Below, piece by piece: positions 33,569 through 61,677 of a stretch of 64,000 nt of DNA. The notes below the pieces were generated by a model that worked only from the letters and a program-made list of their open reading frames with translations, was not told the DNA's origin and did no database searches. Source of the DNA: an uncultured archaeon. GTDB lineage: Archaea > Aenigmatarchaeota > Aenigmatarchaeia > Aenigmatarchaeales > Aenigmatarchaeaceae. The DNA is taken from NCBI GenBank assembly GCA_964347265.1, contig CAYFXV010000001.1, forward strand, positions 115,876 through 179,875, written 5' to 3'. Position 1 is the stretch's first letter. The number at the start of each line of letters is the position of its first letter. Position numbers and translations under genes: made by a program.

Positions 33569-36500
33569 ATGGAAAAAGTAATGATTTTATTAGTTTTACT
33601 TATCTCGTTCGTATTAATTTCTAGCTTATACTTCTTGAATTTAACAAGACTTACAGGAATGTTTATCGGATTTGGACAACCACAAAGTGCTGAATGGTGG
33701 AATATTTCTTGGCAATATAGATTTAGATTTGAAATTAATTCCACTCAATATAATAGAACAGATTGGCCAATAGAACAACAAATAAATTTTACAGACTTAT
33801 TACCTTCTGGAACATTTGATATAAATTCTACCAGAGTTTTTGAATATTCTTCTGGCTCAATATTATATGAAATCCCAAGCCAATTTGAAGTAGATGAAAA
33901 TTATAATGCAACAAACAATGCAATAGGCACTTTAGTTTTTCTCATGAATGGAACAACTAATGCTAACACTAATAGAACTTTTTATGTTTATTATGATTCC
34001 ATAGAAAATGGTGCTAAAGAAAATCCAAATTATACAATTAATATTAACTATAATTGGGATGGAGAAGAAATTAATGTTAATAATTCATTCTTATCAATTA
34101 ACATTGATACCAATAGATCGGAAAATACTTCTGGTATTTACCGTGTTTATAGTGGTGAAGATTATTTGCTTGACGTAGCAGACGAATCTAATAGAACTGC
34201 AGAATATCTTGAATACTCTAATGGAACATATAATTTCAGTTTTGATTTGATAGGTAATGCTAGTTTCACAAATGGTTCTGTAAGACTTATAATAGAACAG
34301 GTGGGAGATGAAATTATATTTGGATATCCTAGCCAAAAGACAAATGAAGGTCAAATAATTAAAAGATATTATATATATGATAAAGCTGGGCCTCAGAGCC
34401 AAGGAATTTTTATTAAAATCTGGCAAAGATTTTCAAACAATGCAGGTTATTCTATAGATAGAAATTCTACTTTTTCGGGTGCTTTAGCATTTGATGTTGA
34501 AAGAACTTTTGATTCTGGCAATGTATATAGTCATGAATCTAATACAACAAATCCCTACTCTTGGTCTAGAACTACTGGTGGAACTACTGGAGCTTGGGAA
34601 ACTCTAGGTATAATTAATTTAAATCAAACCGGAACCTCAAACTACTTTGCCAATTATACTTCAGAGTGGGGTAGGGTAGGACTCCAACTTAATAATACTA
34701 CTATAACGTCTGGATCTTACATAGAACAAACTTCTGTGGTTTATCTTGCTCCTACTGGTGGAGGTTTGGCTATTGACGAATTTGAAAACATAAGAGACAG
34801 ATTCATTAATCCTATAAGTATTACTCAATATCTTCCAGAAGTATGGTATGTGGATATTGATCCATCAACAAATGAAACGATTTACAATAAAAATGAAACG
34901 ATTTTGATTACAGGTAATATTTCAGATGGAGATAGCTATAATCTTACAGAATATATGAATGCTACTCTAGATATGGGCACAATTGATAGTGGTGATGATC
35001 AAACAATAATTCTTTATGATGATGGAAATCATGAGGATGGAGCTGCCAATGATAGTGTTTTTGCTAATAGTTTTCAAATACCAAATAATGGTGAACTTGG
35101 TATATGGACAATAAACTTTACTACATATTCAAATAATTCAGAGTTTCTAAATTCAACAAATTATACTTTTAATGTAACTGATATTTTAAATGTTAGTGTG
35201 AATATAAACAACCCTACAGGATTAACAGGAAGAACAGTTTTTGCAAATATTAGTGTTAAAAATTATAGAACTGATATTTGGATTCCCGGATCTACTTTAA
35301 ATTGTAGTTACGATTCTACTGAAGTTACTAATAAAACTGATTGGGGAGATGGAAATTATTCTGTTAACTTTACTGCTCCTATTGAAGAAGGGGATTATAA
35401 CCTTAGTTGTAATGCAACATGGAACAATAATACGGGTAATGATACTGACAGTTTTATCACAGAATCTGCAAAAATTAATGTAAGTATAACTGCTCAACCA
35501 TCTAATTTTACGTTAAATAATGTTGGATTATATGAAAATGAAAGTTTTGTAACTGCAATTAATGCTACAAATTTAGGAAATGGTACTGCATATAATTCTA
35601 ACATAAGTTTAAATCTTTTAGGTGGATGGGATGCAAATGAAACAATTGAACAGTGTGGAAATATAAACAAGACTGAATTCTGTATAAAGGGCTTTAATAT
35701 TACAGCGCCCAATGCAACTAGTCCTGGGAATTATTATATAAATGTTAGTGTGAATTGGACTAATCCTGACGATAGTTTTGGAACGAATCAAACTACTTTA
35801 AATGTAACTATTTCTTCGAATCCAAAAGTCAATGTATCTGAAGAAACTTTAACAGCAGAAGCCGGTGATGGAGTAAATATTTATGTTTTTAATTTCACTG
35901 TCATATCCATAGGTAATGATGCACTACAAAATATTACATTTAACTGTTCTGAAGGCGATGTTTGTAATAATTTTGTTGTTAATTTTACTCCACAGAATAT
36001 TTCAAGTTTAAATGTAGATGAGAATTATTCTGTAGCTGTAAATGTGACAGTACCGTTAGGATATACTGTTGGTACTTATAATGGTACTGTTAATGTATCT
36101 GCTGAGAATGATGATTATAAGAATTTGACTTTGAATATAAGTGTAGCTGCAAAAACTAATGCCAGCATAACGTTTGACCCTTCAAATTATACTTCACAAA
36201 ATTTAACTCAGCTTGCTAATGAAAGTTTTATTCTTAATATTACTATTATGGATATAAGTAATGGAAGTGCGAGATATACAAACATAAGTTTAAATGTTCC
36301 TTCTAATTTATCATCAAACTCAACATTCGAAAATTGTAATAATTTAACAAAAGGTGAAGTTTGTCTTAAAGCTTTCAATATAACAATACTAAAGGGGGCT
36401 AATCCTGGAAATTATTATATAAATGTTAGTGTGAATTGGACTAATCCTGATAATAGTTTGGGAGTGAATCAAACTAGTTTTAATGTTACAGTAGAGAGCA

Positions 36501-39463
36501 ATCCTTTGGTTAATGTAAGTGAGACTGTTTTATCACAAAATGTTAGCGATGCTACAAATGTTTATATAGGAAACTTTACTGTCTTATCCATAGGTATTGG
36601 TGCACTACAAAATATTACATTTAACTGTTCTGAAGGCGATGTTTGCAATAATTTTGTTATTAATTTCACGCCACAAAACATTTCAACTCTAGACATGAAT
36701 GAAAATTATTCTGTAGCTGTAAATGTGACAGTACCGTTAGGATATACTGTTGGTACTTATAATGGTACTGTTAATGTATCTGCTGAGAATGATGATTATA
36801 AGAATTTGACTTTGAATATAACAGTACCTTCTAACAGAACTTGGACAATGATTCCATCATCATGCGATAAAAGTGAAAGTTCTGATGAAGGAACTGTTTG
36901 TGAAGTATTAGTAAGAAACTTAGGAAATGATATAATAAACTTTACAATAACACCCGAAGAAGGCAACTATACAAAAGTTAATGTAACTAACTTTTCAATA
37001 AGTGATTGGACAAACTATACTTTTAATGTAACTTACAATATAACTCCTGTTGGTCAAGGTGTTTATAATTCTATCTTTATTGTAGATGCTAACCAAACAA
37101 ACGCCAATCCTGACAATATGACCTTGAATGTAACTCTTTATCCCTTTTTAGCACCTTTAATTAACTTTACAGTAACACCAAATTTAACTGAACAAAATAG
37201 TTCTATATTAATTTTAGCTAATGTAACAGAAAGATCTGGAACTGGCATACAATGGGTTAACATAACTGTTATTAAGCCAGATGAATCAACTAATGAAACA
37301 AACATGACTCTAATTAATTTGAACGGTAGTTTTTCTCAATGGAACTTTACTTACCCTGATTATGGTTTAGGAAACACTACTCTTAGAGGTAATTACAGTG
37401 TAAGAATAACAGCAATAGACAACATAGGCAATATTGATAATTCAACTAAAAACTTTTCAATTCATTCAAAACTTTTAATAACGTCTGCAACATTATCAGG
37501 TACTTATTTGCAAGGAGATAGTGGTTCTATATACCATATAGTAAAAAATGATAGTGGAATTGGTGTAAGTGGAATCAATGTAACATTTACTATAAGAGAT
37601 TCTAATAATAATGTTACATATTCTGCAACAGGACAAACAGATAGTGAAGGAACAATTTATCCATTACCTACTTTTTCTTTAGCGTCTGATGCTCCTACAG
37701 GTACTTACACTTTATTCTCAAACTCTACTTACTTTGATGATGCTTTAAATCATAGCATAGTATTTCAAAGGAATAGCACGTTCCTAGTTAATGCAAGGAC
37801 AATAACTGTTACTGGTTTGTTTGCTGATATAGAAACTGCTGTTACTTGGTATCCAAATAATATAATGAGATTTGGAATTTTAATTTACAATGGAGAAGGC
37901 AGACCTGTAGATCCTGATGACATGAATTTAACTGTTTACGATCCTGCTGACAATGTTTACTTTTTTACTGGTTTGTCTAATATGATAAAAGAGGCAACTG
38001 GATTCTATACTTATTCATATGCTATGGGAGCTGGCACTGCTACTGGCATGTATTTAGCTGTATTAAATGTATCACAGGATACTTTTGAGACAAAGAAACT
38101 AAAAGCCTTTAGAGTTTCTCAAGGAGGACCATATGATGTTGAAATAGTTTTATTTGAAAATGAGGTACCACAAGGCGATTATCTAGATTTTGCAATAAAT
38201 GTTGAAAACAAAGGAGAGGTCGGTCAAGATGTTTCTATTAATTTTTGGGTTTCTGATGCCAATAATGTGACTTATTATAATTATTCACATGACGTATATA
38301 CACCAGCAGTTAGCAATCAAAGTGTTACAGAACAGGCATTTATTTATTCTGATCAGCCTCTTGGTAATTATTATCTAAATGTGAAAGTAAGTTATTCTAC
38401 TATACAACCTCCTATTATTGCATATACAAGTTTTGTAGTAGTGACAGGAGAAGGTTTTATTTTTCCACCTCCATTACCTCCTCCACCCCCAATATATTAC
38501 TATGGACCTGTTGGAGGTTTTGTAACAACATACCCACCAGAACCAACTGCAAAAATAAGAGCAAGTATTATAATAACAAACTATAAAACTAACATAAGTT
38601 TAGCTAGAGGTTTTACTAAAATAGAGAGCGTAACTGTTAAAAACAATGGAATATCTAATTTAACTAATGTAAGTCTTTTCGTAATAGGAGTACCAACTAA
38701 TTGGTTTAACATAACTCCAGAAAAATATGCAGAACTTGAACCAGATAATTCTTCAATCTTCTTAATCGAGTTTAACATTCCTAAAAATACTAAAGTAGAT
38801 GAATACGATGCAAACATAATAGCAAGTTCTGGTGTTGTTACTGATCAAAAGGCAATTAAAATAACGATTTTTGAAAGTTTAGAGGATTTGATAAGAGATG
38901 ATATCAGAAAACTGAAAAGAGATTTAGAGGATTTAAAAGTCGATACTAGAATAGCAGAAATGGAAGGTAAGAATGTTTCAGCTGTTCTTTTAGTTATTAA
39001 TGAGACTGAGAATCAAATTTATGGGGCTGAAATTGACCTTGAAAACAATGATACAGAAGCTGCTATGGATAAAATTCAAAACGCTATTGATCTGATTAAA
39101 AAAGCTAGAGACCTATTAGAAGGTTTAAAGGTTGAAAAAGTTCCTGAAATTTTCCCGATTTGGATAATTTTTGTTATTTTAATTATAATAGCTGCAATCG
39201 TGTTCATTATTATGTATTTGTGGAAGAAAAAGAAATTAGAAAAAATAAGACCTTATATAATACCATTAAGTAAACTTGTAAAAACTGTTAAAAGAAGGAA
39301 AGTTAGTATAGAAAAATTAAAAGGGGAAAGGGATAAAATAAATAGAATGCTAAGAGTCTTAGAAAGGGAGAAAAGACAAGGAATAATAAGTGCTAGAACG
39401 TATGAAAAAATGAAGAAAAGTTTAGAAGAAAAACTAGAAAAAATTGAGAAAAAACTGGAATAA
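33569..39463 (+). CDS. Large (1964 aa) type-I membrane-anchored, sequon-rich surface protein with internal tandem repeats, a poly-Pro segment, a C-terminal TM helix and a charged coiled-coil tail
   Basis: N-terminal signal/anchor MEKVMILLVLLISFVLISSLYFL. N-x-S/T is abundant. PPLPPPPPIYYYGP occurs. TM helix IFPIWIIFVILIIIAAIVFIIMYLW is followed by KKKKLEK and K/E-rich heptads. Confidence 0.8.
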   Translation: MEKVMILLVLLISFVLISSLYFLNLTRLTGMFIGFGQPQSAEWWNISWQYRFRFEINSTQYNRTDWPIEQQINFTDLLPSGTFDINSTRVFEYSSGSILYEIPSQFEVDENYNATNNAIGTLVFLMNGTTNANTNRTFYVYYDSIENGAKENPNYTININYNWDGEEINVNNSFLSINIDTNRSENTSGIYRVYSGEDYLLDVADESNRTAEYLEYSNGTYNFSFDLIGNASFTNGSVRLIIEQVGDEIIFGYPSQKTNEGQIIKRYYIYDKAGPQSQGIFIKIWQRFSNNAGYSIDRNSTFSGALAFDVERTFDSGNVYSHESNTTNPYSWSRTTGGTTGAWETLGIINLNQTGTSNYFANYTSEWGRVGLQLNNTTITSGSYIEQTSVVYLAPTGGGLAIDEFENIRDRFINPISITQYLPEVWYVDIDPSTNETIYNKNETILITGNISDGDSYNLTEYMNATLDMGTIDSGDDQTIILYDDGNHEDGAANDSVFANSFQIPNNGELGIWTINFTTYSNNSEFLNSTNYTFNVTDILNVSVNINNPTGLTGRTVFANISVKNYRTDIWIPGSTLNCSYDSTEVTNKTDWGDGNYSVNFTAPIEEGDYNLSCNATWNNNTGNDTDSFITESAKINVSITAQPSNFTLNNVGLYENESFVTAINATNLGNGTAYNSNISLNLLGGWDANETIEQCGNINKTEFCIKGFNITAPNATSPGNYYINVSVNWTNPDDSFGTNQTTLNVTISSNPKVNVSEETLTAEAGDGVNIYVFNFTVISIGNDALQNITFNCSEGDVCNNFVVNFTPQNISSLNVDENYSVAVNVTVPLGYTVGTYNGTVNVSAENDDYKNLTLNISVAAKTNASITFDPSNYTSQNLTQLANESFILNITIMDISNGSARYTNISLNVPSNLSSNSTFENCNNLTKGEVCLKAFNITILKGANPGNYYINVSVNWTNPDNSLGVNQTSFNVTVESNPLVNVSETVLSQNVSDATNVYIGNFTVLSIGIGALQNITFNCSEGDVCNNFVINFTPQNISTLDMNENYSVAVNVTVPLGYTVGTYNGTVNVSAENDDYKNLTLNITVPSNRTWTMIPSSCDKSESSDEGTVCEVLVRNLGNDIINFTITPEEGNYTKVNVTNFSISDWTNYTFNVTYNITPVGQGVYNSIFIVDANQTNANPDNMTLNVTLYPFLAPLINFTVTPNLTEQNSSILILANVTERSGTGIQWVNITVIKPDESTNETNMTLINLNGSFSQWNFTYPDYGLGNTTLRGNYSVRITAIDNIGNIDNSTKNFSIHSKLLITSATLSGTYLQGDSGSIYHIVKNDSGIGVSGINVTFTIRDSNNNVTYSATGQTDSEGTIYPLPTFSLASDAPTGTYTLFSNSTYFDDALNHSIVFQRNSTFLVNARTITVTGLFADIETAVTWYPNNIMRFGILIYNGEGRPVDPDDMNLTVYDPADNVYFFTGLSNMIKEATGFYTYSYAMGAGTATGMYLAVLNVSQDTFETKKLKAFRVSQGGPYDVEIVLFENEVPQGDYLDFAINVENKGEVGQDVSINFWVSDANNVTYYNYSHDVYTPAVSNQSVTEQAFIYSDQPLGNYYLNVKVSYSTIQPPIIAYTSFVVVTGEGFIFPPPLPPPPPIYYYGPVGGFVTTYPPEPTAKIRASIIITNYKTNISLARGFTKIESVTVKNNGISNLTNVSLFVIGVPTNWFNITPEKYAELEPDNSSIFLIEFNIPKNTKVDEYDANIIASSGVVTDQKAIKITIFESLEDLIRDDIRKLKRDLEDLKVDTRIAEMEGKNVSAVLLVINETENQIYGAEIDLENNDTEAAMDKIQNAIDLIKKARDLLEGLKVEKVPEIFPIWIIFVILIIIAAIVFIIMYLWKKKKLEKIRPYIIPLSKLVKTVKRRKVSIEKLKGERDKINRMLRVLEREKRQGIISARTYEKMKKSLEEKLEKIEKKLE
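35470..36835 (+). repeat. Internal tandem repeat of ~227 codons (681 bp) within the 1964-aa gene
   Basis: PGNYYINVSVNWTNPD...NITFNCSEGDVCNNFV.NFTPQNIS...YSVAVNVTVPLGYTVGTYNGTVNVSAENDDYKNLTLNI occurs twice. cctggGaattatt at 35723 matches cctggAaattatt at 36404. Confidence 0.75.
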
Positions 39464-39472
39464 TTAATAGTT

Positions 39473-41225
39473 TTTATGAAACTGCATAAATTGTTAGTGT
39501 TGCTTGACTCATGTTCCCGCTGGGAATTCCATTTGGAACCCATGAATCAACTCTAATTGTGTATGAATTTCCAGGAGTTAAATCGTCGTTATAAAAGTAT
39601 TCTGTGTTTGCGCAATCTGTATAATTGGCTGTTCTATCGTATTTGATTATGTATATCTTTGTACAACTAACATCTGCTGCTACACAATGTCCGCTTAATG
39701 TGCCAGTAGTAACAGCACCATATGCCCACCCTGAACTGCCAGTACTTGTAGTCAAACTAATAGCATTAATTGGTGTTCTTGTTGCCGTTGTACCTAAATC
39801 TTCGTCAGTTTCTATAGCAAATTGGGCTGAGTTATTACAATATATACCATTGGGGTCACCAACAGGAGGTGTTCCGTTTCCTAATACCCATACATAATCA
39901 TTGCTAGTGTTTCTATGGTATCCCCATGATACAGGACTTGTTACAGCACTCCAGTCATGATCAGCTATGTCTTCTGTCCAGTTCCATTCTATTCTTCCAA
40001 CAAAGTAGTAATTGGTGGTGTCATTTGACAGTGTTATAACGCCACCTGCTGCAAAGTCTGATGGATCACCGCTTTGATAAGGTCTTGTTGTCTCATCAGT
40101 TAGTGAATCTACATATGCTGAGAGATTTGATACATTTAAGGATCCTGCATTTTTTATGGTTAAGTTCCTATAGCCTCCCGTACTTCCTGTAGCAACCTGT
40201 GTCCAATTTATATATGAGGGAATTACTGATATTGATGCTGTTTCTGAAACATTAACATCTAATGCTGTTGTGTCAGTTGTATCTGCAGTAGCTAGTTGAG
40301 TAATTAGTATAGAAGAAACTAAAAGAAAAAACACTAATAATGCAAACCGAAAATACATTTGTTTGGAAATTTTTTTAACCCTTTTTTTTAAAATAACAAA
40401 TTTTTTTAAAATATTTAATATTTTGGGCTATATTTATGAAACTGCATAAATTGTTAGTGTTGCTTGACTCATGTTCCCGCTGGGAATTCCATTTGGAACC
40501 CATGAATCAACTCTAATTGTGTATGAATTTCCAGGAGTTAAATCGTCGTTATAAAAGTATTCTGTGTTTGCGCAATCTGTATAATTGGCTGTTCTATCGT
40601 ATTTGATTATGTATATCTTTGTACAACTAACATCTGCTGCTACACAATGTCCGCTTAATGTGCCAGTAGTAACAGCACCATATGCCCACCCTGAACTGCC
40701 AGTACTTGTAGTCAAACTAATAGCATTAATTGGTGTTCTTGTTGCCGTTGTACCTAAATCTTCGTCAGTTTCTATAGCAAATTGGGCTGAGTTATTACAA
40801 TATATACCATTGGGGTCACCAACAGGAGGTGTTCCGTTTCCTAATACCCATACATAATCATTGCTAGTGTTTCTATGGTATCCCCATGATACAGGACTTG
40901 TTACAGCACTCCAGTCATGATCAGCTATGTCTTCTGTCCAGTTCCATTCTATTCTTCCAACAAAGTAGTAATTGGTGGTGTCATTTGACAGTGTTATAAC
41001 GCCACCTGCTGCAAAGTCTGATGGATCACCGCTTTGATAAGGTCTTGTTGTCTCATCAGTTAGTGAATCTACATATGCTGAGAGATTTGATACATTTAAG
41101 GATCCTGCATTTTTTATGGTTAAGTTCCTATAGCCTCCCGTACTTCCTGTAGCAACCTGTGTCCAATTTATATATGAGGGAATTACTGATATTGATGCTG
41201 TTTCTGAAACATTAACATCTAATGT
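39473..41225 (-). repeat. Tandem gene duplication: a 793-bp perfectly identical block (39473–40265 = 40433–41225) covering the mature-protein region and 3' ends of two adjacent genes, 960-bp period
   Basis: Direct base comparison. Divergence begins at 40266 / 41226, in the signal-peptide coding part, and at 39472 / 40432. Confidence 0.85.
39474..40358 (-). CDS. Secreted/surface protein, tandem paralog A (294 aa), Sec-type signal peptide
   Basis: N-terminus MYFRFALLVFFLLVSSILITQLATA, then TALDVNVSETASISVIPSYINWTQVATGSTGGYRNLTIKNAGSLNVSNLS. The mature region is 100% identical to paralog B. Confidence 0.75.
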   Translation of the reverse strand: MYFRFALLVFFLLVSSILITQLATADTTDTTALDVNVSETASISVIPSYINWTQVATGSTGGYRNLTIKNAGSLNVSNLSAYVDSLTDETTRPYQSGDPSDFAAGGVITLSNDTTNYYFVGRIEWNWTEDIADHDWSAVTSPVSWGYHRNTSNDYVWVLGNGTPPVGDPNGIYCNNSAQFAIETDEDLGTTATRTPINAISLTTSTGSSGWAYGAVTTGTLSGHCVAADVSCTKIYIIKYDRTANYTDCANTEYFYNDDLTPGNSYTIRVDSWVPNGIPSGNMSQATLTIYAVS

Positions 41226-41321
41226 TACTGTATCACTTGTATCTGCTATAGTAATTGTTACACTCAAAAAAATTGCTAAAAATACAAAAACTATCCCCAA
41301 AACTAACAAATTCCGGTTCAC
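40434..41321 (-). CDS. Secreted/surface protein, tandem paralog B (295 aa), with a divergent signal peptide
   Basis: N-terminus MNRNLLVLGIVFVFLAIFLSVTITIA. The rest is identical to paralog A. Confidence 0.75.
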   Translation of the reverse strand: MNRNLLVLGIVFVFLAIFLSVTITIADTSDTVTLDVNVSETASISVIPSYINWTQVATGSTGGYRNLTIKNAGSLNVSNLSAYVDSLTDETTRPYQSGDPSDFAAGGVITLSNDTTNYYFVGRIEWNWTEDIADHDWSAVTSPVSWGYHRNTSNDYVWVLGNGTPPVGDPNGIYCNNSAQFAIETDEDLGTTATRTPINAISLTTSTGSSGWAYGAVTTGTLSGHCVAADVSCTKIYIIKYDRTANYTDCANTEYFYNDDLTPGNSYTIRVDSWVPNGIPSGNMSQATLTIYAVS

Positions 41322-41408
41322 TTATATTCCTCCTTATAAGAGTAATTATATTTGAATTTTATGGATATATAAATATTATTATATTTTTGTAACTATAATA
41401 AAAATAAT
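41322..41408. promoter_or_regulatory. AT-rich divergent intergenic region with TATA-like elements (e.g. attattatattttt ~41376–41388, ~25 nt before the ATG at 41409); candidate promoters for both flanking genes
   Basis: Archaeal TATA-like motifs at appropriate spacing for short-leader or leaderless transcripts; not verified. Confidence 0.3.
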
Positions 41409-42347
41409 ATGAAATTCAGATTTCTAATCATATTTTTTATTATATTCTTTGTAATTTTTTCTATTCCTTCTCTATCACAAAGTGTTGGCGTATCTCCTGT
41501 AAGAATAAACCTAGGAGAATTAAAAGGTGGCTCGACAAAATTAGTAAGTTTTTATGTAATAAGTCCTTCAGAAAAAACTTTATTAGTTAAATTAGAGCCT
41601 GAAAGATCTAATTTAGACTCTATTGGAAAAAATCTTATCACTAACTTATCTGAAGAGGACATAAGCTCTTGGATAAAAATAATAAATAATCCAGTAGAGC
41701 TTAGGCCTACTAATGAAACTCTAAAAACAACAGGCGGATTAATAAGGGGTCAAAGAGAAATAAGTTTTCTAGTTGAAATTCCAAATAATAGTGAACCTGG
41801 ATATCATGCAATAGATATAAAACCTGTACCTTTAGAATCTCCAGAAGCAACAGCTCCTGTAGGTGGTAGAGTTGTTGCAATAGTTTCTGTTAAAGTTTTA
41901 TTTGATATTATTGGAAATGCTTTAAGAAGAGGAATAATTTTAGATACAGAAACTGGGAAGTATGTTGGTGATAAATTGGAAATAAACAATTATTTTCAAA
42001 ATACTGGCACAGTTACTATTTCTGCAAGTGGTACTCAAAAAATTTATGATAAAGAAGGGAACTTAAAAGAAGTGCTTTTTTTGAGTAAACAATACTTAAA
42101 ACCCAAAGAAATAAAAGTTTTCAGAGGACTCTTACCAACAACAGGACTTTCTTTAGAAGACTATAATGTTTATACAGTTATTGACTATACGACTGGCAAA
42201 GCAGAAAAAAGTTCAACCATAACATTAACTGCTCCTCCACCAACAGCCCTAGCTGCAAAAGCAGAAGAAGAGATATTTATTCCTTTATTGATCATTATTA
42301 TAATTGTTATTTTTGTTATCTCAGTAATAATTTACAGGAGAACTTAA
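41409..42347 (+). CDS. Type-I membrane protein (signal peptide + C-terminal TM), hypothetical
   Basis: 312 aa. N-terminus MKFRFLIIFFIIFFVIFSIPSLSQS; C-terminal TM IFIPLLIIIIIVIFVISVIIY followed by RRT. Confidence 0.6.
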   Translation: MKFRFLIIFFIIFFVIFSIPSLSQSVGVSPVRINLGELKGGSTKLVSFYVISPSEKTLLVKLEPERSNLDSIGKNLITNLSEEDISSWIKIINNPVELRPTNETLKTTGGLIRGQREISFLVEIPNNSEPGYHAIDIKPVPLESPEATAPVGGRVVAIVSVKVLFDIIGNALRRGIILDTETGKYVGDKLEINNYFQNTGTVTISASGTQKIYDKEGNLKEVLFLSKQYLKPKEIKVFRGLLPTTGLSLEDYNVYTVIDYTTGKAEKSSTITLTAPPPTALAAKAEEEIFIPLLIIIIIVIFVISVIIYRRT

Positions 42348-42865
42348 TGAAAATAAAAACATGGATAATTTTAATGATCTCATTGTTTTTTGTTATCTTC
42401 TTATTTATTCTTATCAATATTCAAGAACCTCCAGAACCTAAAGAATTTGTAAAAAATCAGAGCTCTGCCACGTATTCTACTTTATTTTTTACCTATGAAA
42501 TAAAAAGATATCCATCCAACGTTGAAATAAAACTAACAGAACAGACAAACCAAACAGCAGTCTTAGGTTTTGTTACCGAACCTTGGAACATTAATTTTGG
42601 GATAATTCCTGGTAATGAAAGTTTTGTAACAAGAAATATTGAAATAGCTAATTTGGGAGAGAAAAATAACAAAATAATCTTAAAGGTTTATGGAAATATA
42701 TCTCCCTTAGTTACCTTTAGCAAAAACAATTTTATTTTAAAACCTGGAGAAAAGACTTCAATCGATATCTTTTTATATAGCAAAAAATTTGATCCTGGAA
42801 ACTATTCTGGAGAAATTGACGTGATTGCTCGAAAAGATATTTATAATTTTCTATCTATAACATGA
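42347..42865 (+). CDS. N-terminally anchored hypothetical protein
   Basis: 172 aa. TAATG overlap with the upstream gene. N-terminal TM WIILMISLFFVIFLFILI. Confidence 0.5.
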   Translation: MKIKTWIILMISLFFVIFLFILINIQEPPEPKEFVKNQSSATYSTLFFTYEIKRYPSNVEIKLTEQTNQTAVLGFVTEPWNINFGIIPGNESFVTRNIEIANLGEKNNKIILKVYGNISPLVTFSKNNFILKPGEKTSIDIFLYSKKFDPGNYSGEIDVIARKDIYNFLSIT

Positions 42866-42868
42866 TTA

Positions 42869-43615
42869 ATGAAAATATTAATAATCTGTATAATTTGTTT
42901 CTTAATTCTAATAGGAGTTGTTCACTCTTCAATAATAGAAGTTGGCATAATGGAAGAGGTGAAAGGAAAAATTAGTTCAATAAGTTATGATAATTCTACA
43001 AATATTATGAAGTTTTTAATAGAATTCTACAATACTGGTAGTGTTCCATACAAAGCTAGAATTAAGAGTGAGATTTTTAAGGAAGATAAATTGATTTTTA
43101 GTGGTTGGACTCAAGAAAACGAGCTTATGCCTGGAAATAAAAAACTCTCTGATATTTATTGGTTTACTAATTATACTGGAGAATATTTTGTAAAACTAAA
43201 AGCATATTTTGGTAATGAAATCAAGAAATATAAAAAATTTGGAATTTCAATTAATAAATCTATTTTATCTGAAAATGTTTTTGAAATTAAAAATCTTAGA
43301 ACTTATGATAAGTATATTATATTTGATGTTCAAAGCAAAGAAGATGTGGAAAATGTAATAATTATGCCTAATAATTATGTTTCTGGTTGGATATTTGAAC
43401 AAAAGAAAATAGATAACATAACCAAAGATGGTTCAAAACTTGTTTTAATTCCTTATTATTCAACTTTATGGAAACCAACCAATATTACTCTAGCAATAGC
43501 TTCAAATAATGGAAAATATTACACAGAAAAAACTATAGAAATGAAAAAAAGTGAAGGTTTAATTGGATTCTTTTATTATATAATAGATGGTCTAAGAATA
43601 GCTTTCTTTAAGTGA
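42869..43615 (+). CDS. N-terminally anchored/secreted hypothetical protein
   Basis: 248 aa, 3 nt after the upstream stop. N-terminus MKILIICIICFLILIGVVHS. Confidence 0.5.
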   Translation: MKILIICIICFLILIGVVHSSIIEVGIMEEVKGKISSISYDNSTNIMKFLIEFYNTGSVPYKARIKSEIFKEDKLIFSGWTQENELMPGNKKLSDIYWFTNYTGEYFVKLKAYFGNEIKKYKKFGISINKSILSENVFEIKNLRTYDKYIIFDVQSKEDVENVIIMPNNYVSGWIFEQKKIDNITKDGSKLVLIPYYSTLWKPTNITLAIASNNGKYYTEKTIEMKKSEGLIGFFYYIIDGLRIAFFK

Positions 43616-43722
43616 TTAGCCCTTCAATATTGATACTATATTGTATCTATATTTATACAGAAAGATATAAATATGAGATTTATGTGATATCTATATAGCT
43701 GCAATATGAAAAGAGGGATTAT
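43616..43722. promoter_or_regulatory. Intergenic region with several palindromes upstream of the wHTH regulator gene (GATACtatattGTATC 43622–43637; TCTATATTTATA..8 nt..TATAAATATgAG 43636–43667; CTATATAG 43691–43698); candidate operator and promoter
   Basis: Inverted repeats read directly in the sequence. Their position immediately upstream of a DNA-binding regulator gene suggests autoregulation. Confidence 0.35.
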
Positions 43723-43941
43723 TTGGTTGAAAATGGAATAACAAGCAATGATTTGGAGAAAAAAATTCTAGATATGTTAAGCAAGGAATTATTATCTGTT
43801 TCTCAAATTGCTAAAAGACTAGGAATAAGAAGGGATGTTGCAACAGGATATTTAGAAGCATTAAAAAATCAAGGGAAATTAGAATTCCACAAAGTGGGTA
43901 GATCTAATATCTATACAATTCCTAGGAGGACAAAAAAATGA
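43723..43941 (+). CDS. Small winged-helix-turn-helix transcriptional regulator
   Basis: 72 aa. LSVSQIAKRLGIRRDVATGYLEALKNQGKLEF matches a helix–turn–helix plus wing pattern (ArsR/TrmB/MarR-like). It overlaps the downstream surface-protein gene by 4 nt. The start is TTG at 43723 (alternative ATG at 43774). Confidence 0.6.
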   Translation: MVENGITSNDLEKKILDMLSKELLSVSQIAKRLGIRRDVATGYLEALKNQGKLEFHKVGRSNIYTIPRRTKK

Positions 43942-46331
43942 AGAAATTTATATTTTTATCAGTGATTTTATTTTTAATTACAATTCCTTTAGCTTCAGCT
44001 ATGCCTACAATTGAAAATTTTTCTGTCCAACCTCCATCTCTTTGGTTAGGAGAGGGTGCATTTATTTCTCTAAATTGTCTTGATGAAAATTATACAATAG
44101 AACAGGTCTATGCTGATATAATAGGCCCTTCAATTACTCTTCCTACAATGTACTTCACAAAATCTGGTGAAAATTACAGCTTATCTGTTGATAAAGAGTA
44201 CCTTGACAGAACTGGAAATTTTGATGTAACAATATCTTGTGAAAATAATAATAGTGAAATAAGTTATACTTCTACAAATTTCACGATCTCAGAACTTACA
44301 GGTTATATCAATAAAATTAGTCCTAGTCCTGCTTACATTGGAGATACATTAGAAATAGATTTTATAGTCAAAAAAGATGATACAAAATTATCTTCTGGTG
44401 TTGTCTTCAATGTTACATTAAACGATGATCTAAAGAATTTGAAAGTTCTTCCAGCTTATGATATTAACAAAGGTTGGATACTAAAAATAAATTCTCCTAC
44501 CAAATCCAATCTTTATGATTTAGAAGTAACAGCATTTTATGACAGAACAAGTGTAACAGATTATGATACGATTGATGTTAGAAACAAAATTGAATTTGAA
44601 ATCGTTTCTATAGATAGAAATTGGATTAAAACTAATGACAATATAACTGTTAGAGTAAAAGCCTTAGAAAGGGGTAGTGTCATTGAGTTAAATAAAAATA
44701 ATGTTGACATTAACATAGGTTCTACTACTGCTGAAATAACTAGCGTATCTAGAGAAGGTGATTTATTTAATGTAAAAATTATTGCACCAAGTCTTTCTTC
44801 TGGAAGATATAATTTAGAAGCTTATCTCAACTATGAAAGTTCTTCTTATTCAGATAGTGAACCAATAGATTATATTGTAACAGTTGAGGGAGTTTTTGTT
44901 GATGAAAAAAACAAAGCAATGAATGTTAAGATAATTTTTATTCAGGACGATATTACAAAATTAAGCATAACAACAGATGCTTACGGTCACTATTCTGGTT
45001 CGTTGCCTCCTGATATTTATGATGTTAAAATTATTTTCCCGAGATCTGAAGTTATTTTGTATGATGTCTCAGTTAGTAGTTTTGATGATCCTATAAAACA
45101 TTTTTACTCAACTGGTTTTAGTGTTTCTGGAATAAGAAATGCTGGTTTATATAGTTTTGAAATAGATTTATCTTACTTTGATGCTGATATAGAAATGAAA
45201 TATGAGGAAAGGAATGTTATAAGCGAAAATAATTTGAGGGTTTTCAGATGTTCAAGTTGGAGTTCTGGAAGAGGAACATGTAATGGTGAGTGGGAAGAAG
45301 TAGTTGGTGAAATTGATGTTATAAGAAACAAAGTAAAAATAACTTCTTCCACACTTTCAGCTTTTGTTATAGGTGAAATAAAGGCTTTAAGTGCAGATTT
45401 CAGCTTAGATAAAGAAAGATATTATCTTAACGATGATATCACAATAACAGGAATATTAAAAGATGAAGACAGAGGTAGTGTTAGTAATGCTACCATAGAT
45501 GTAAATATTAAAAATACAGGTATAAATTCTAAAACTACTACAGATGAAAATGGTGTATTTTCTGTAGAAATTCCAGCACCTGAAATTGAAGGAGAATATG
45601 GTTTAGTTTTAAAGGCAAAAAAGCATCCTTATAAAGAATTTAGTGCTGAAAAGTATTTTGAAATTATTAAAAGCAGATCAGTCTACATAGATTTTCCAGA
45701 CACGATAAAAATAGCTAGAGGGAATAATCTTACTCAAGAATTTAGTTTAACAAATAATGGACAAGCAGATCTTTCTGATTTAAAAATTTCTTTAGAGGGC
45801 ATACCTGAAAATTATTATAGTATCACTTCAGATAGTACAGATTTGAAAATTGAAGAAAAGAAAACTTTTTATATAGATTTCTTTATTCCTGTTTATGCTG
45901 ATACTGGAATCTCCAGTACTACCTTAAAAATTGAAGATAGTAATGTATCCGAAGAAAAAATTTTCGGATTAAATATATTTGAAAAAATCGAAGAAAATGA
46001 AACTACAGCTGCTCCCACAGGTCTTGTTACAGGTTTTGTTTTCCCAGAAATTAGTTATTTAGAGGTACTCTATATTGTATTGTTTGCAGTAGCTTGTTTT
46101 TCTGTAACAATTATTTTAAAGAAAAGAAAAGTCAGAAAAGGAAGCAGAGGTAATATTAAAAATTTTTTATTTGATATTAAAAACTTTATTGAAAAAGAAG
46201 AACCTCAAACTCAAAAAATTAAAGTTCAGAAAAAATCTAAAAAAAATAATTATGATAAGATAATTGCAACAGAATTTCCTAATTTTCTTAAATTATCTGA
46301 AAATTTGAAAAAAATAAAAGGTGGTGAATAA
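43938..46331 (+). CDS. Type-I membrane-anchored surface protein (797 aa) with CarboxypepD_reg-like beta-sandwich segments
   Basis: Signal MKKFIFLSVILFLITIPLASA. Motifs TDAYGHYSGSLPPDIYDVKIIF and TDENGVFSVEIPAPEIEGEYGLVL. C-terminal TM YIVLFAVACFSVTIIL followed by KKRKVRK. Lysine-rich cytoplasmic tail. Confidence 0.7.
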   Translation: MKKFIFLSVILFLITIPLASAMPTIENFSVQPPSLWLGEGAFISLNCLDENYTIEQVYADIIGPSITLPTMYFTKSGENYSLSVDKEYLDRTGNFDVTISCENNNSEISYTSTNFTISELTGYINKISPSPAYIGDTLEIDFIVKKDDTKLSSGVVFNVTLNDDLKNLKVLPAYDINKGWILKINSPTKSNLYDLEVTAFYDRTSVTDYDTIDVRNKIEFEIVSIDRNWIKTNDNITVRVKALERGSVIELNKNNVDINIGSTTAEITSVSREGDLFNVKIIAPSLSSGRYNLEAYLNYESSSYSDSEPIDYIVTVEGVFVDEKNKAMNVKIIFIQDDITKLSITTDAYGHYSGSLPPDIYDVKIIFPRSEVILYDVSVSSFDDPIKHFYSTGFSVSGIRNAGLYSFEIDLSYFDADIEMKYEERNVISENNLRVFRCSSWSSGRGTCNGEWEEVVGEIDVIRNKVKITSSTLSAFVIGEIKALSADFSLDKERYYLNDDITITGILKDEDRGSVSNATIDVNIKNTGINSKTTTDENGVFSVEIPAPEIEGEYGLVLKAKKHPYKEFSAEKYFEIIKSRSVYIDFPDTIKIARGNNLTQEFSLTNNGQADLSDLKISLEGIPENYYSITSDSTDLKIEEKKTFYIDFFIPVYADTGISSTTLKIEDSNVSEEKIFGLNIFEKIEENETTAAPTGLVTGFVFPEISYLEVLYIVLFAVACFSVTIILKKRKVRKGSRGNIKNFLFDIKNFIEKEEPQTQKIKVQKKSKKNNYDKIIATEFPNFLKLSENLKKIKGGE

Positions 46332-47107
46332 TGGTAAGGATAATTGCTGTATGTTCTGGTAAAGGTGGTGTTGGAAAAACTATTGTGGCTTCCAATTTAG
46401 GAGTAGCCCTTCAGAAATTTTATAAAAAAGCTGCAGTTATTGACTTTAATTTTACAACATCACATTTAAGTCTATATTTTGGTATACATTCTCATCCAAT
46501 AACTTTAAACCACGTCTTAAGAAATGAAGCAAGATTAGAAGATGCTATTTATAATCATCATTCAGGTTTAAAAATTGTTCCTGGATCTTTAAAACTCAGA
46601 GATATTATTGATGTTGATGTTAATAATTTAAGAAATACATTAAAACAAGCATTTTCTAGCTTTGACGTTGTTTTTCTTGATTCTGCACCAGGATTAGGTA
46701 AAGAAGCTTTAATAGCTTTGCAAGCAAGTGATGAGGTTTTATACATTGCAAACCCTCACCTACCTTCTTTAATTGATATAACAAAGTGTAATCAAGTAAT
46801 TAATAAACTGGAAAACAAACCAATTCCAATAGGTATAATTGTTAACAGGGTTAAAAACAAAGGTTATGAAATTAAAAACGATGAAATAAGACAATTTACA
46901 GAACTACCAATTATTGGAGTTATTCCTGAAGATGAAAATATATTATCAGGTTTCAATAGAAGAGATTTGGTAATGCTTTCTAAAAAAAGATCTTCATCTA
47001 AAAAAGAGTTTTTTAAAATTGCTGCAAAACTTGTTGGAATGAAATATGAATACAGTTTTTGGGATAGAATCAAGAGTATTTTCGGAAAAGAAAAAGAATT
47101 TTTTTAA
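46331..47107 (+). CDS. minD: MinD/ParA-family (SIMIBI class) ATPase, paralog 1
   Basis: Deviant Walker A CSGKGGVGKT at residues 8–17. Motifs DFNFTTSHLSLYFG and VVFLDSAPGLG. Its ATG shares a base with the upstream stop (TAATGG). Confidence 0.8.
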   Translation: MVRIIAVCSGKGGVGKTIVASNLGVALQKFYKKAAVIDFNFTTSHLSLYFGIHSHPITLNHVLRNEARLEDAIYNHHSGLKIVPGSLKLRDIIDVDVNNLRNTLKQAFSSFDVVFLDSAPGLGKEALIALQASDEVLYIANPHLPSLIDITKCNQVINKLENKPIPIGIIVNRVKNKGYEIKNDEIRQFTELPIIGVIPEDENILSGFNRRDLVMLSKKRSSSKKEFFKIAAKLVGMKYEYSFWDRIKSIFGKEKEFF

Positions 47108-47131: not shown

Positions 47132-50100
47132 GTGGAATATATGGCTAAATCATTAACAAAAATGAGTTTAACTTTATTTTCTTTATTCTTACTAATAATA
47201 GGTTTATATATAACACAGATAGTTTTAGCTGACCCAGATGAAACAACAATCACATTAACAACTGCTGCTTCAAATACTTATAATGGTGGTGATGCAAACG
47301 GTGGATTGACAGGAGATATTAATTGTGAATATACGATTGATACAATAACTGCACCAACAGGAACTATAGATCAAATAAATTGTTCAGTTTATATAAACTC
47401 TTTTAATAACAAAAAAACTCCAAACAATACTATAAAATGTTTGGAATGTTCAGATGTTTCTTGCACTGGTTATAATCAGATTGGAACAACACAAACCCCT
47501 GCTGAAACGGGATGGATAAATTTTCCAAATGAAGTTCCTTCATATTGTGATACTTCTGGGGAGACATGTTATTTTGCTGTTGAAGTATGTGAATTAGGTC
47601 ATGCACTTGACGATATTGCATTATCTGATGCTTGGGCTGGTTTTAATTTTACCCCACCAGATGACAGCACTCCACCCAATTGGTTTGACAATACTACTTC
47701 TGTTGTTAATGGGTCGCAGTACTCGCCTGGAAAAAATTATCAATTTAATGTAACTTGGAATGATAGTCAAACTGATGTTAATACTGTTTTAATAGAACAT
47801 AATTTTACTGGAGGTGCTGTTCCTCACAATGATAGTGTGAGTAATGAAAGTGATATTTATTATTTTTACCTTAGTGATTTGCCAGCTGGAACTTACGCAT
47901 GGAGAGAACATGCAAATAACACGGATGATTATTGGAATGTTACTAATGATGGAGTTTATTGGGAATATGTTGTAGATCAGAATCAAAGTAATTCTGTTGA
48001 TATGTATATCAATAATGGAACTGTATACAAGAATGAGAATGTTACAATAGATTACAGTACACAGACAAATACTAATGGAACCGCTGTTTACAGTAATAGT
48101 GGAACTGTGAATTTGTATAGAAATGAAAGTCCTGTTAGTAATCCTGACATTGTCACTCTAGGCGCTAGTACATATGTATATAAGGCAAATATAACGGGGA
48201 ACAATAATTACACTGATAATTCAACTGGTGCGACCTATTATTTGTTTGTTAAAAAGGCTGACCCAACAGCAAATTTGAAATTAGCTTTAAATGGAACTGA
48301 GAGTGACTGGACCTATACATATCCTGAGACTGTTAATGCAACTGGTTGGTGTGATTTAACTGATAATCAAGATCTGAGTTTCACTTTGTATAGGAATTAT
48401 GTTTCTACTGGACAGACAGGAGATCCATCAACAGAAGAGATATTACTTGGTAATGCGACTTATGTTTATGAATATAATACAACAGGTGGAAGTAACTATA
48501 GTTCAGGAACTATTACTAGAACAGCTTATGTTAACAAAGGAACAGTTTCACCTAGTTTGTCAATAAATACAACCTGGACAGAGATGTATCCAACAGCAAC
48601 GAGTGTTAGCTGTTCAGTCACTTCTGTGAATAATGAGGTTAATTGTAATTTGTATAGGAATGATACTGGTTCTGTTGTTAGTCCGGATGAAGTATTACTT
48701 GGAGTAGGAGGTTATAATTATTCAACTAACACATCTGAGACAGCTAACTATTCAGCAAATACTACGGGAACATTTAATGTTTTAGGAATTAATCTAGGTA
48801 CTCCGAATGTTAAGACATTTATAGATACTTTACCTTTAAATAAAACTATTAATTATTCTACCAGCGTAACCATAGAAGGAAATTCTACTACCACAACAAC
48901 TCCACCAACTTTTGATTTATTTGTATTTAATGTAACACCATCTTCACCAGCTGTTAGTTTGTCGAACACTTCGAATAATCCTGCGACCTTAATATTAACA
49001 CTGGGAAATGGAACTTATCAAATAATTTACAATACCTCTGGGAATGCTAACTGGTCTTCTACTCAGAATAACACCTTATATTTAATGGTTAATAAAGGTA
49101 GTGCTAATTTGGTTTTAAGCTCTAATGTGACATGGAGTACGATTTACCCGAATGCTAGCAATGTTACTGGTTCTGGATGTCCAACAAATGGCGCATCAGA
49201 TTTTACATGTAATTTATATAGAAATACTTCAGTTACGAATCCTGTCGGTTCTGGTGAACCCATGACAAATGAAACTATTTTACTTGGAGCAGGTAGTCAT
49301 GAATATGTATGGAATATGAGTATTAGTAATCCTGCTAACTGGACTTTTAATACAACTAATGATATTTTAGTTATATCTCCAAATAGTTCTACTCAAAATT
49401 ATATGAATCTAACTTTAGGAACTGGAGCAACTGGAACAGAAGATAATAAAACATATAGTTATCCTACAACTACTAATGCAACTGGATGGTTTGACGCTAA
49501 TGCATTCGTAGGTTCTGCTCCTACATTTAATTTATACAGAAATGATACACCAATCGTAGATGGTAATCCTGTTAGCAATGTTATAGAACTTGGGGCTGAT
49601 TATTATCAATATGTTTATAACACATCTGGTAATACTAACTATTCATCGGCATCAAAAACATTTTTCTTGAACATAACTAAGGCTGACCCAACAGCAAATT
49701 TGAAATTAGCTTTAAATGGAACTGAGAGTGACTGGACCTATACATATCCTGAGACTGTTAATGCAACTGGTTGGTGTGATTTAACTGATAATCAAGATCT
49801 GAGTTTCACTTTGTATAGGAATTATGTTTCTACTGGACAGACAGGAGATCCATCAACAGAAGAGATATTACTTGGTAATGCGACTTATGTTTATGAATAT
49901 AATACAACAGGTGGAAGTAACTATAGTTCAGGAACTATTACTAGAACAGCTTATGTTAACAAAGGAACAGTTTCACCTAGTTTGTCAATAAATACAACCT
50001 GGACAGAGATGTATCCAACAGCAACGAGTGTTAGCTGTTCAGTCACTTCTGTGAATAATGAGGTTAATTGTAATTTGTATAGGAATGATACTGGTTCTGT

Positions 50101-61011: not shown

Positions 61012-61677
61012 ATGCCAATATTGTTTAACTTCAAAGTGTGTGACAATGCGTCTGCGTGTAATGGAATAGGTGCTTGTCCAGTAAAAGCAATAACTTGGAA
61101 TGATGAACAAAAAACTTTAGTTGTTGATAATTCAAAATGTACTAGTTGTGGACTTTGTGCAAAAGCTTGCCCTGTTCCAGAAGCTATTTTAGTTGTAAAA
61201 ACAGAGGAAGATTTTGAAAAAATAAAAAATCAAGTAGAAGATGATCCAAGAACTAGAGCAGAACTATTAAAAGATAGATATGGTGTTGCACCGACAGATC
61301 TTAATCTAGTTTTAACTATGGCAAATTTCAATAAAGAAGTGTTAGAAACTGATAGAATTGTTATTGTTGATTTTTGGGATGAACCACATGTATCTTGCAG
61401 ATTATTTTCTATACCGTTTGAAAACATATTACCAAAAAAAACATTTATTTCAGAAATAATGAAAATGGGAAATCTCGAAGATTTGAAGTTCAGATTTAGA
61501 AAAGTTGATGTAGAAAAAAATCCTGAAATTGCTACAAGATATAATGTAAAAGAAATTCCTTCACTATTAATATTTTGGAAAGGAAAATCAATAGGAAGAA
61601 TTGAAGGTAAATTTAAAGTCGAAAAGGAGAAAGAACTCAGAAAGAAAATAGCAGAAGTACTAAAACAAATAAGGTGA
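61012..61677 (+). CDS. Fusion of an N-terminal ferredoxin-like Cys-cluster module and a C-terminal thioredoxin-fold domain with the CxxC active site lost
   Basis: [14 protein letters not shown] (C-x5-C-x5-CP) and [12 protein letters not shown] (C-x2-C-x2-C-x3-CP) give 7 Cys. The C-terminus [17 protein letters not shown]...[54 protein letters not shown] parallels thioredoxin hhVDFWA.WCGPCK...NP..A..Y.I..IPTLLLFKNGE... but has DEPH in place of CGPC. Confidence 0.6.

Follow-up and report, generated by a model that had tools for sequence, protein, structure and literature searches.

Concerted evolution by gene conversion is a textbook process: tufA and tufB in enterobacteria evolve in this way, as do the tandem archaellin genes flaB/flgA of methanogens and haloarchaea. 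A tandem gene pair in an uncultured member of the archaeal phylum Aenigmatarchaeota appears to be a further case. The pair lies in a stretch of 64,000 nucleotides (nt), here called the window (GenBank assembly GCA_964347265.1, contig CAYFXV010000001.1, positions 115,876 to 179,875), and its two members, U (upstream) and D (downstream), encode a secreted protein, here called the subunit. As in the described concerted pairs, the paralogs are closer to each other within a genome than orthologues are between genomes; mosaic exact tracts, sharp borders and position-specific flanks are also shared. Unlike those pairs, U and D have a whole export signal and regulatory region that remain unconverted, so that two pre-proteins give one near-identical mature protein, and the family is uncharacterised and mostly confined to one DPANN phylum. 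The best explanation taken whole, and one that can be held with good confidence, is that U and D are an old tandem pair evolving in concert and that they probably encode an anchorless subunit of the cell surface.

For the protein itself, the closest described systems are surface assemblies. Donor-strand fibres of the TasA superfamily, which make use of an N-terminal strand, include Bacillus subtilis TasA, Pyrobaculum AbpA, the CanA/CanX cannulae of Pyrodictium and the Sulfolobus 0406 thread (PMC12518558). The WxL/WxLIP complexes are found in Enterococcus and Lactobacillales: according to one proposal, WxLIP, with the architecture DUF916-DUF3324-transmembrane helix, keeps WxL proteins, which have no anchor of their own, at the surface through beta-strand insertion (PMC10599100). 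Two-component archaeal S-layers, such as SlaA/SlaB of the Sulfolobales, consist of an anchorless outer protein and a membrane-anchored stalk (PMC5744192).

The pair and its control regions comprise the following features (aa, amino acids; ORF, open reading frame).

40434-41321, minus strand: U, the upstream paralog, a 295-aa ORF with a GTG start
41244-41321, minus strand: coding sequence of the U signal peptide, 26 aa, MNRNLLVLGIVFVFLAIFLSVTITIA; the mature N-terminus is DTSDTVTLDVNV
39474-40358, minus strand: D, the downstream paralog, a 294-aa ORF with an ATG start
40284-40358, minus strand: coding sequence of the D signal peptide (SP_D), 25 aa, MYFRFALLVFFLLVSSILITQLATA; the mature N-terminus is DTTDTTALDVNV
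N-terminal peptides that tell the two products apart: DTSDTVTLDVNVSETASISVIPSYINWTQVATGSTGGYR for U, DTTDTTALDVNV… for D
40433-41224, minus strand: repeat block, U copy
39473-40264, minus strand: repeat block, D copy (residues 33-294 with the stop codon, and one further nt on the 3' side)
40265-40283, minus strand: first mature codons of D, the conversion-tract decay zone, ~70% identical to U
40359-40433, minus strand: U/D spacer, 75 nt, AT-rich; runs of T follow the stop of U, and there are A/T boxes resembling TATA
41322-41408: divergent region between U and a 312-aa gene (p312), a putative promoter region
41366-41373, minus strand: TTTATATA, a TATA-like box
41329-41334, minus strand: AGGAGG

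The first-pass annotation, made from the letters of the window, had described these two ORFs as sharing a perfectly identical block of 793 nt that ran from the mature N-terminus to 1 nt beyond the stop, with signal peptides and promoters that differ. The two minus-strand ORFs are as it described them. The identical block exists, but position-by-position comparison at an offset of 960 gives it 792 nt without mismatch (39473-40264 = 40433-41224): 1 nt past the stop, the stop codon, 262 codons and 2 nt. Its 3' end was correctly placed; its 5' end was not, as identity begins at the eighth mature residue rather than at the mature N-terminus. Cleavage is predicted at …LATA|D and …ITIA|D, with a small residue at -1 and -3 in both signal peptides, and of the eight residues that follow (DTTDTTAL vs DTSDTVTL) three differ. 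Over the ~30 nt at the mature N-terminus, U and D are roughly 70% identical. On the 5' side of this zone, the difference between the copies is as claimed: the comparison is at noise level, with 51% nt identity in a forced alignment and 16% aa identity between the signal peptides. An exact repeat of 792 nt in 64 kb of DNA with 32% GC (31.7% for the window) cannot be put down to chance. The U protein is identical to the database protein P0001; the D protein is P0370 and shares a 90% cluster with U.

The case for an old pair begins with the 5' regions. Related loci were collected, 26 in all (L numbers below), and their six-frame ORFs were profile-searched for the family. The U-type signal, MNR(N/K)LLVL…ITIA|D (MNRNLLVL…ITIA in the window), with its GTG start and its position beside the divergent 312-aa gene, recurs in L005, L006, L007, L023 and P0003. 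The D-type signal, …FR.ALL…LITQL(A/V)TA|D (…LITQLATA in the window), recurs in P0005/L024, P0007/L025 and P0008. The D-type genes of L024 and L025 come immediately after the 3' end of another copy, and the spacer can be aligned with the 75-nt spacer of the window, including the motif AAGG(G)T(T)AAAAAAAT that the window spacer contains. Signal-region identities group by type, U or D: the window spacer with SP_D is 69% identical in nt to L025, as against 51% to the window's own U module, and the window U module (promoter and signal peptide) is 88% identical to L005 and 78% to L023. Position-specific flanks and 5' modules are thus orthologous between genomes, as expected if the duplication preceded the species split. 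The 75-nt spacer probably serves U as terminator and D as promoter and leader. AGGAGG stands 7 nt before the GTG of U; there is no obvious Shine-Dalgarno (SD) sequence for D.

In the D-type orthologues at L024 130-1050 and L025 499-1419, ATA is aligned with the ATG of window D, and no canonical start codon stands in frame upstream of it from which a complete signal peptide could be read; gene callers begin these genes at an internal Met (MLITQL…), leaving no signal peptide. Similarly shortened N-termini are found in many database members of the subunit family. The ATA-start orthologues could reflect unusual initiation or could be decaying copies. A scan of JGI metagenomes with a degenerate D-type signal-peptide pattern returned L024 again and nothing else. 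An origin of SP_D by copying from the neighbouring p312 was considered ('MKFRF…' vs 'MYFRF…') and rejected: nucleotide similarity does not extend past the first codons, and SP_D has orthologues of its own.

The mature-coding regions tell a different story from the 5' modules. Tandem pairs are present in seven loci (L003/L004, L011, L012, L014, L024, L025 and the window). Mature identity within a genome is 100% in the window, 83-85% in L025 (84-85% for U vs D of L023/L025), 85% in L003, 79% in L011 and 75% in L014; between genomes it is 47-75%. Mature regions of the window and of L023/L025 are 67-68% identical, U to U and D to D alike: these regions cluster by genome rather than by type. The L003, L011 and L014 pairs, otherwise 80-88% identical, contain exact tracts of 139, 277 and 112 nt, and codon shuffles reached those tract lengths in 0/2000 trials for each of the three. 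A strain variant of U, P0371, falls in the same 90% cluster and is found on three other National Center for Biotechnology Information (NCBI) contigs; it differs from window U by only four substitutions, all within eight residues (~261-268; DDLSTGNTF vs DDLTPGNSY), in what looks like a small recombination patch. Gene conversion over the mature part, as the first-pass annotation had proposed, is therefore well founded: orthologous 5' modules, mature parts that cluster by genome, mosaic tracts in other loci and patchiness between strains all agree on an old pair under recurrent conversion. The window would be the extreme case, in which the last tract spans nearly the whole shared region.

The sequence of events probably runs as follows. 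U and D are an old tandem pair, each retaining its own 5' module: for U, a promoter with a strong SD, GTG and MNRNLLVL…ITIA; for D, the 75-nt spacer, ATG and …LITQLATA. Recombination between the directly repeated bodies repeatedly copies one mature-coding region onto the other; the latest tract in the window starts at the eighth mature codon and reaches one nt beyond the stop, with no difference accumulated since. The 3' limit of identity marks the edge of the original duplication, and the 5' limit the point where homology runs out. As conversion homogenises the mature-coding regions, U and D would deliver nearly one protein: both genes would yield essentially the same 28.9-kDa acidic, N-glycosylated, disulfide-containing all-beta protein, by way of Sec and signal peptidase I. 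This subunit would be a high-copy surface component, part of a coat or of a short fibre, and p312, encoded next to it, would keep it in place or assemble it through beta-strand augmentation, perhaps via the segment (D)TVTIDVNV. The two copies would mainly raise or diversify expression. Their simplest reading is dosage, and conversion would then follow passively, as a by-product of the tandem homology.

A different history would make the duplication very recent, with the downstream copy then receiving a foreign signal peptide and spacer by illegitimate recombination. Perfect identity over 792 nt speaks for this, as does the single-copy state of the closest relatives (L005, L006, L007). However, the spacer and signal of D are not foreign: they hold the same position downstream of U in L024 and L025, although the mature parts there are only 67-73% identical to those of the window, and P0008 has the D signal type as well. 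The partial mosaics of other clades are, moreover, the intermediate state that conversion predicts. Orthology of the D module, as far as the sequences go, largely refutes a recent origin, which is very unlikely. The pair could also be a product of assembly: two strain alleles with different 5' ends strung in tandem, or one graph node traversed twice. The contig is metagenome-assembled, many assemblies break at the subunit gene, and the spacer/SP_D junction gave 0 exact matches in the scan of JGI metagenomes. Yet the junction of U 3' end, spacer and SP_D is present in the independent assemblies L024, L025, L003, L004, L011 and L014, and diverged tandem pairs cannot come from graph collapse. The same contig keeps repeats of 429-1517 nt distinct at 96-99.5% identity; as it separates such near-identical repeats, the perfect identity of U and D is probably not a simple graph collapse. 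A clue closer to the reads comes from the Logan contig L027 (run ERR2564004), whose sequence equals that of window 41195-42875 and breaks off 30 nt into the U block at its 5' edge. Logan assemblies use k = 31; an end at k-1 nt is expected of a graph in which a shared block is entered from two different sequences, and a break exactly at the repeat edge is what two 5' contexts would predict. An assembly artefact is accordingly rated as quite improbable.

The remaining alternative concerns why the 5' regions differ, and is compatible with conversion: selection would keep the modules distinct for their function, and the pair would be a regulated switch rather than a matter of dosage. Examples of such functions would be promoters tied to particular conditions, unequal kinetics of export, or N-terminal donor strands that differ. 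In its favour, both signal types are conserved across species; the mature N-termini, the sole part in which the products differ, lie in a conserved strand-like segment; and U has a strong SD with GTG, whereas D has ATG and no obvious SD. Against it, a canonical start is missing from the D orthologues of L024/L025 at the aligned position, a sign of relaxed constraint or of unusual initiation, and the single-copy state appears viable in relatives. Divergent 5' ends would also persist without selection once homology is lost: the diverged regions lack the homology that conversion needs. The first-pass annotation, in which targeting and regulatory regions were held apart, with differential expression or export as a conjectured purpose, was right that they stay distinct; selection as the cause is another matter, as the boundary maintains itself. 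A functional switch is a possibility to be entertained, though an unlikely one.

Several points weigh against concerted evolution of an old pair of surface-subunit genes. The nearest relatives, L005, L007 and L006 (86-88% identity), are single copy, and the account then requires either secondary pop-out loss or collapse in assembly. The partial L025 pair has no significant exact tract (227/2000 shuffles reached its length). Exact identity and tandem order in the window rest on one assembly and one indirect read-level clue. D may be weakly expressed in some lineages, as there is no obvious SD and as L024/L025 have ATA at the aligned position. On the side of function, no sequence link was found between the subunit or its neighbours and TasA/Peptidase_M73, WxL or DUF916/DUF3324, and the best Foldseek match of the subunit model, a TasA fibre, is weak (E 0.037; TM-score 0.24/0.29).

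In two of the single-copy loci (L005 10001-10900, L007 5130-6032), the lone gene is of U type and its stop abuts the stop of the convergent gene p1964, as that of D does in the window. The structure of L005, L007 and L006 would fit a pop-out deletion between the repeats and a collapse by the assembler equally well. Contigs that end in or beside the subunit gene include L004, L012, L015, L019, L020, L022, L023 and L027, several of them near the mature start; repeat-induced breaks at this gene are likely. Concerted evolution of the pair would explain such breaks and collapses in Aenigmatarchaeota genomes, and copy number in metagenome-assembled genomes (MAGs) is probably under-called, as assemblies break or collapse there.

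The process is a known one; the family on which it acts is uncharacterised. What is less ordinary here is that the border of conversion falls between export signal and mature protein, that intermediate stages of conversion are preserved across a phylum, and that an unannotated family occupies a conserved DPANN surface locus. The pair offers a clean natural case of conversion halting at a homology boundary, where two unrelated pre-sequences lead to one mature protein.

Relatives of the subunit number 102 by word-indexed search and 353 clusters at 50% identity by exhaustive profile search. Nearly all are single-domain proteins of ~300 aa, and the named ones come almost entirely from MAGs of Candidatus Aenigmatarchaeota, which makes the organism of the window a DPANN archaeon. 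An alignment of 43 members (A1) has 54% mean column identity and four invariant cysteines, with (D)TVTIDVNV as a conserved segment directly after the cleavage site. The mature protein has 269 aa, 28.9 kDa, a pI of 4.1 and 12 N-glycosylation sequons, 7/12 of which are kept in at least 39/43 members; its sequence has no C-terminal anchor, neither a transmembrane (TM) helix nor PGF-CTERM. The AlphaFold2 (AF2) model (pLDDT 82, pTM 0.71) is all-beta, with ~14 strands; this monomer gives no structure to the conserved segment at the N-terminus (pLDDT 51-67).

Searches have left this protein without a named family or fold. The subunit has no Pfam or NCBIfam match; its 43 relatives, compared with Pfam at E up to 10, gave no consistent family; a sequence profile search of the PDB returned nothing significant or relevant; and Foldseek comparison of the model with the PDB and the viral database BFVD found no significant neighbour. 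Besides the TasA fibre, weak Foldseek matches were to a cannula and to type 1/CFA pilins at E > 0.1, and to one PapD-like ASH domain; such fibre-subunit matches hint at a kind of fold and do not amount to a match. A viral capsid or jelly-roll reading was set aside, as neither the sequence profile search of the PDB nor Foldseek against the PDB and BFVD gave a significant match. For the structure prediction (jelly-roll or pilin-like) that the first-pass annotation had in view, the model is thus a confident all-beta one with no significant fold match. Homology to p312 and its family and to the neighbouring p172 and p248, sought with hhalign, was rejected as well: nothing was found beyond a generic Ig-like 'xLxFGxVxxGxxxxxxLxIxNxG'. 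A major envelope or filament subunit, the candidate role first suggested, is plausible, given secretion, lack of an anchor, 12 sequons, a conserved locus and an Ig-like partner.

The genes on either side are as follows.

33569-39463, plus strand: p1964, convergent; a giant surface protein of 1,964 aa with MG2 and NPCBM_assoc domains, a C-terminal TM helix and a cytoplasmic coiled-coil tail; N-glycosylated
41409-42347, plus strand: p312; a signal peptide followed by two Ig-like beta-sandwich domains, with a TM helix at the C-terminus
42347-47107, plus strand: remainder of the divergent operon, always linked; p172, p248, a 72-aa winged helix-turn-helix (wHTH) protein, p797 and a MinD/ParA-type ATPase

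The stop codon of p1964 is 10 nt from that of D. Wherever the flank of a locus is long enough, the subunit gene has p312 as its neighbour, whose AF2 model (pLDDT 84.7) has helix H2-17, two beta-sandwich domains and helix H278-311. Its best Foldseek matches in the PDB are enterococcal WxLIP structures, 9i25_C and 9i1y (WxLIP alone and bound to a WxL protein), at E 1e-10 and TM-scores of 0.47-0.56; others are PapD-like/ASH domains, the chaperones FimC and CfaA (TM-score ~0.4) and RbmA. Pfam scans of p312 and 49 relatives (alignment A2, 49 sequences) found no DUF916 or DUF3324, and a PDB profile search with p312 did not find WxLIP by sequence. With this architecture, WxLIP-like or PapD-like, p312 is proposed as an anchor or chaperone for the subunit.

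Each of the described surface systems resembles this arrangement in part. With WxLIP, which is its best structural match, p312 shares the whole architecture (signal peptide, a pair of Ig-like domains, TM helix at the C-terminus); unlike that system, p312 lacks DUF916/DUF3324, the subunit lacks a WxL domain, the organisms are archaea without peptidoglycan, and the putative interaction between p312 and subunit is suggested by linkage. With the TasA superfamily, the subunit shares a Sec-type signal, an all-beta mature protein of ~25-29 kDa, an N-terminal strand-like segment and paralogous neighbours; the differences are a structural match at E 0.037 and a TM-score < 0.3, no match to Peptidase_M73 (PF12389) among 43 members, a locus without a dedicated signal peptidase, and a polymerisation that is conjectural. 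As in two-component S-layers, an anchorless N-glycosylated secreted protein stands beside membrane-anchored ones, in an arrangement kept through the phylum, and the predicted sequence of both copies shows the secretion and the many N-glycosylation sequons expected of S-layer proteins; unlike those, the subunit has only 29 kDa and is unusually conserved (40-57% identity across the phylum), and a lattice would be conjectural. Chaperone-usher pili are more distant: p312 is membrane-anchored, its likeness to FimC/CfaA is moderate (TM-score ~0.4), Pfam scans of the locus proteins found no usher-like protein, and archaea have no outer membrane.

That the subunit is a structural surface protein dependent on p312 has about even chances of being right, be it as part of a fibre or of a coat. 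A larger scenario is speculative and on balance doubtful: U/D and p312 would form an unrecognised archaeal surface-assembly system, in which a tethered WxLIP- or PapD-like two-Ig protein captures the N-terminal strand of the subunit. In such a scheme p312 would either display the subunit or start a donor-strand polymerisation that builds it into the principal coat, or attachment fibre, of Aenigmatarchaeota; the giant adhesin-like proteins of the locus and its two MinD-type ATPases could build a DPANN host-contact apparatus; and the cell could use the two 5' modules to boost the supply of this one subunit or to switch it. To our knowledge the Aenigmatarchaeota have no cultured member and no known envelope components. 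The subunit pair makes a good first target for study of their envelope, and the locus as a whole may merit more attention than the repeat.

This locus covers ~25 kb (window 30502-58573), and its order and orientation are kept in all Aenigmatarchaeota contigs with enough flank (L001, L003, L005, L007, L010, L011, L013, L014, L016, L018 and others): p579, p145, p160, p1964, the subunit gene in one or two copies, p312, p172, p248, wHTH, p797, MinD, (p1757), p716, p237, p427, MinD. The subunit gene or pair stands between p1964 and the p312 operon in at least 17 genomes, at 40-88% identity. Of the small products of this surface locus, which extends through the phylum, the subunit is the best conserved. 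Of the operon products, p172 and p248 are Ig-like and secreted or membrane proteins, and p797 has a CarboxypepD_reg domain and a C-terminal TM helix. The locus has two MinD/ParA-type ATPases and no secretion ATPase. In one clade a further small HTH gene stands between p312 and the subunit gene (L012 2036-2242; L017 2815-3030; L018 9528-9737; L020 9614-9820); it is paralogous to the gene for the 72-aa wHTH protein.

Other surface proteins of the window include a 1,757-aa beta-propeller/FG-GAP protein and the product of a single ORF of 10,140 aa (83-30505, plus strand), which is rich in NxS/T. At the C-terminal end of the latter, a match to a HerA/DUF87 P-loop ATPase (~29483-29695, E 3e-7) follows an NPCBM_assoc domain; the ORF would join a giant surface protein to a HerA-like ATPase in the cytoplasm. 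It contains repeats at 3539-5053 vs 4943-6457 (98.0% over 1517 nt) and at 14739-16657 vs 17937-19840 (89.2% over ~1.9 kb). Further repeats of the locus are at 48254-48769 vs 49679-50194 (96.3%), 53062-53490 vs 53827-54255 (99.5%) and 35466-36148 vs 36147-36829 (75.5%). As other surface-protein genes thus carry near-identical internal repeats, homogenising recombination seems to be general in the region. Scans of the window for tRNA and Rfam families returned nothing. The window also encodes archaeal ribosomal proteins, namely L1, P1 and an L10/P0 that contains the archaeal/eukaryotic insertion domain, and, at 61012-61677 on the plus strand, a 221-aa protein with an N-terminal 2x[4Fe-4S] ferredoxin domain and a C-terminal thioredoxin domain.

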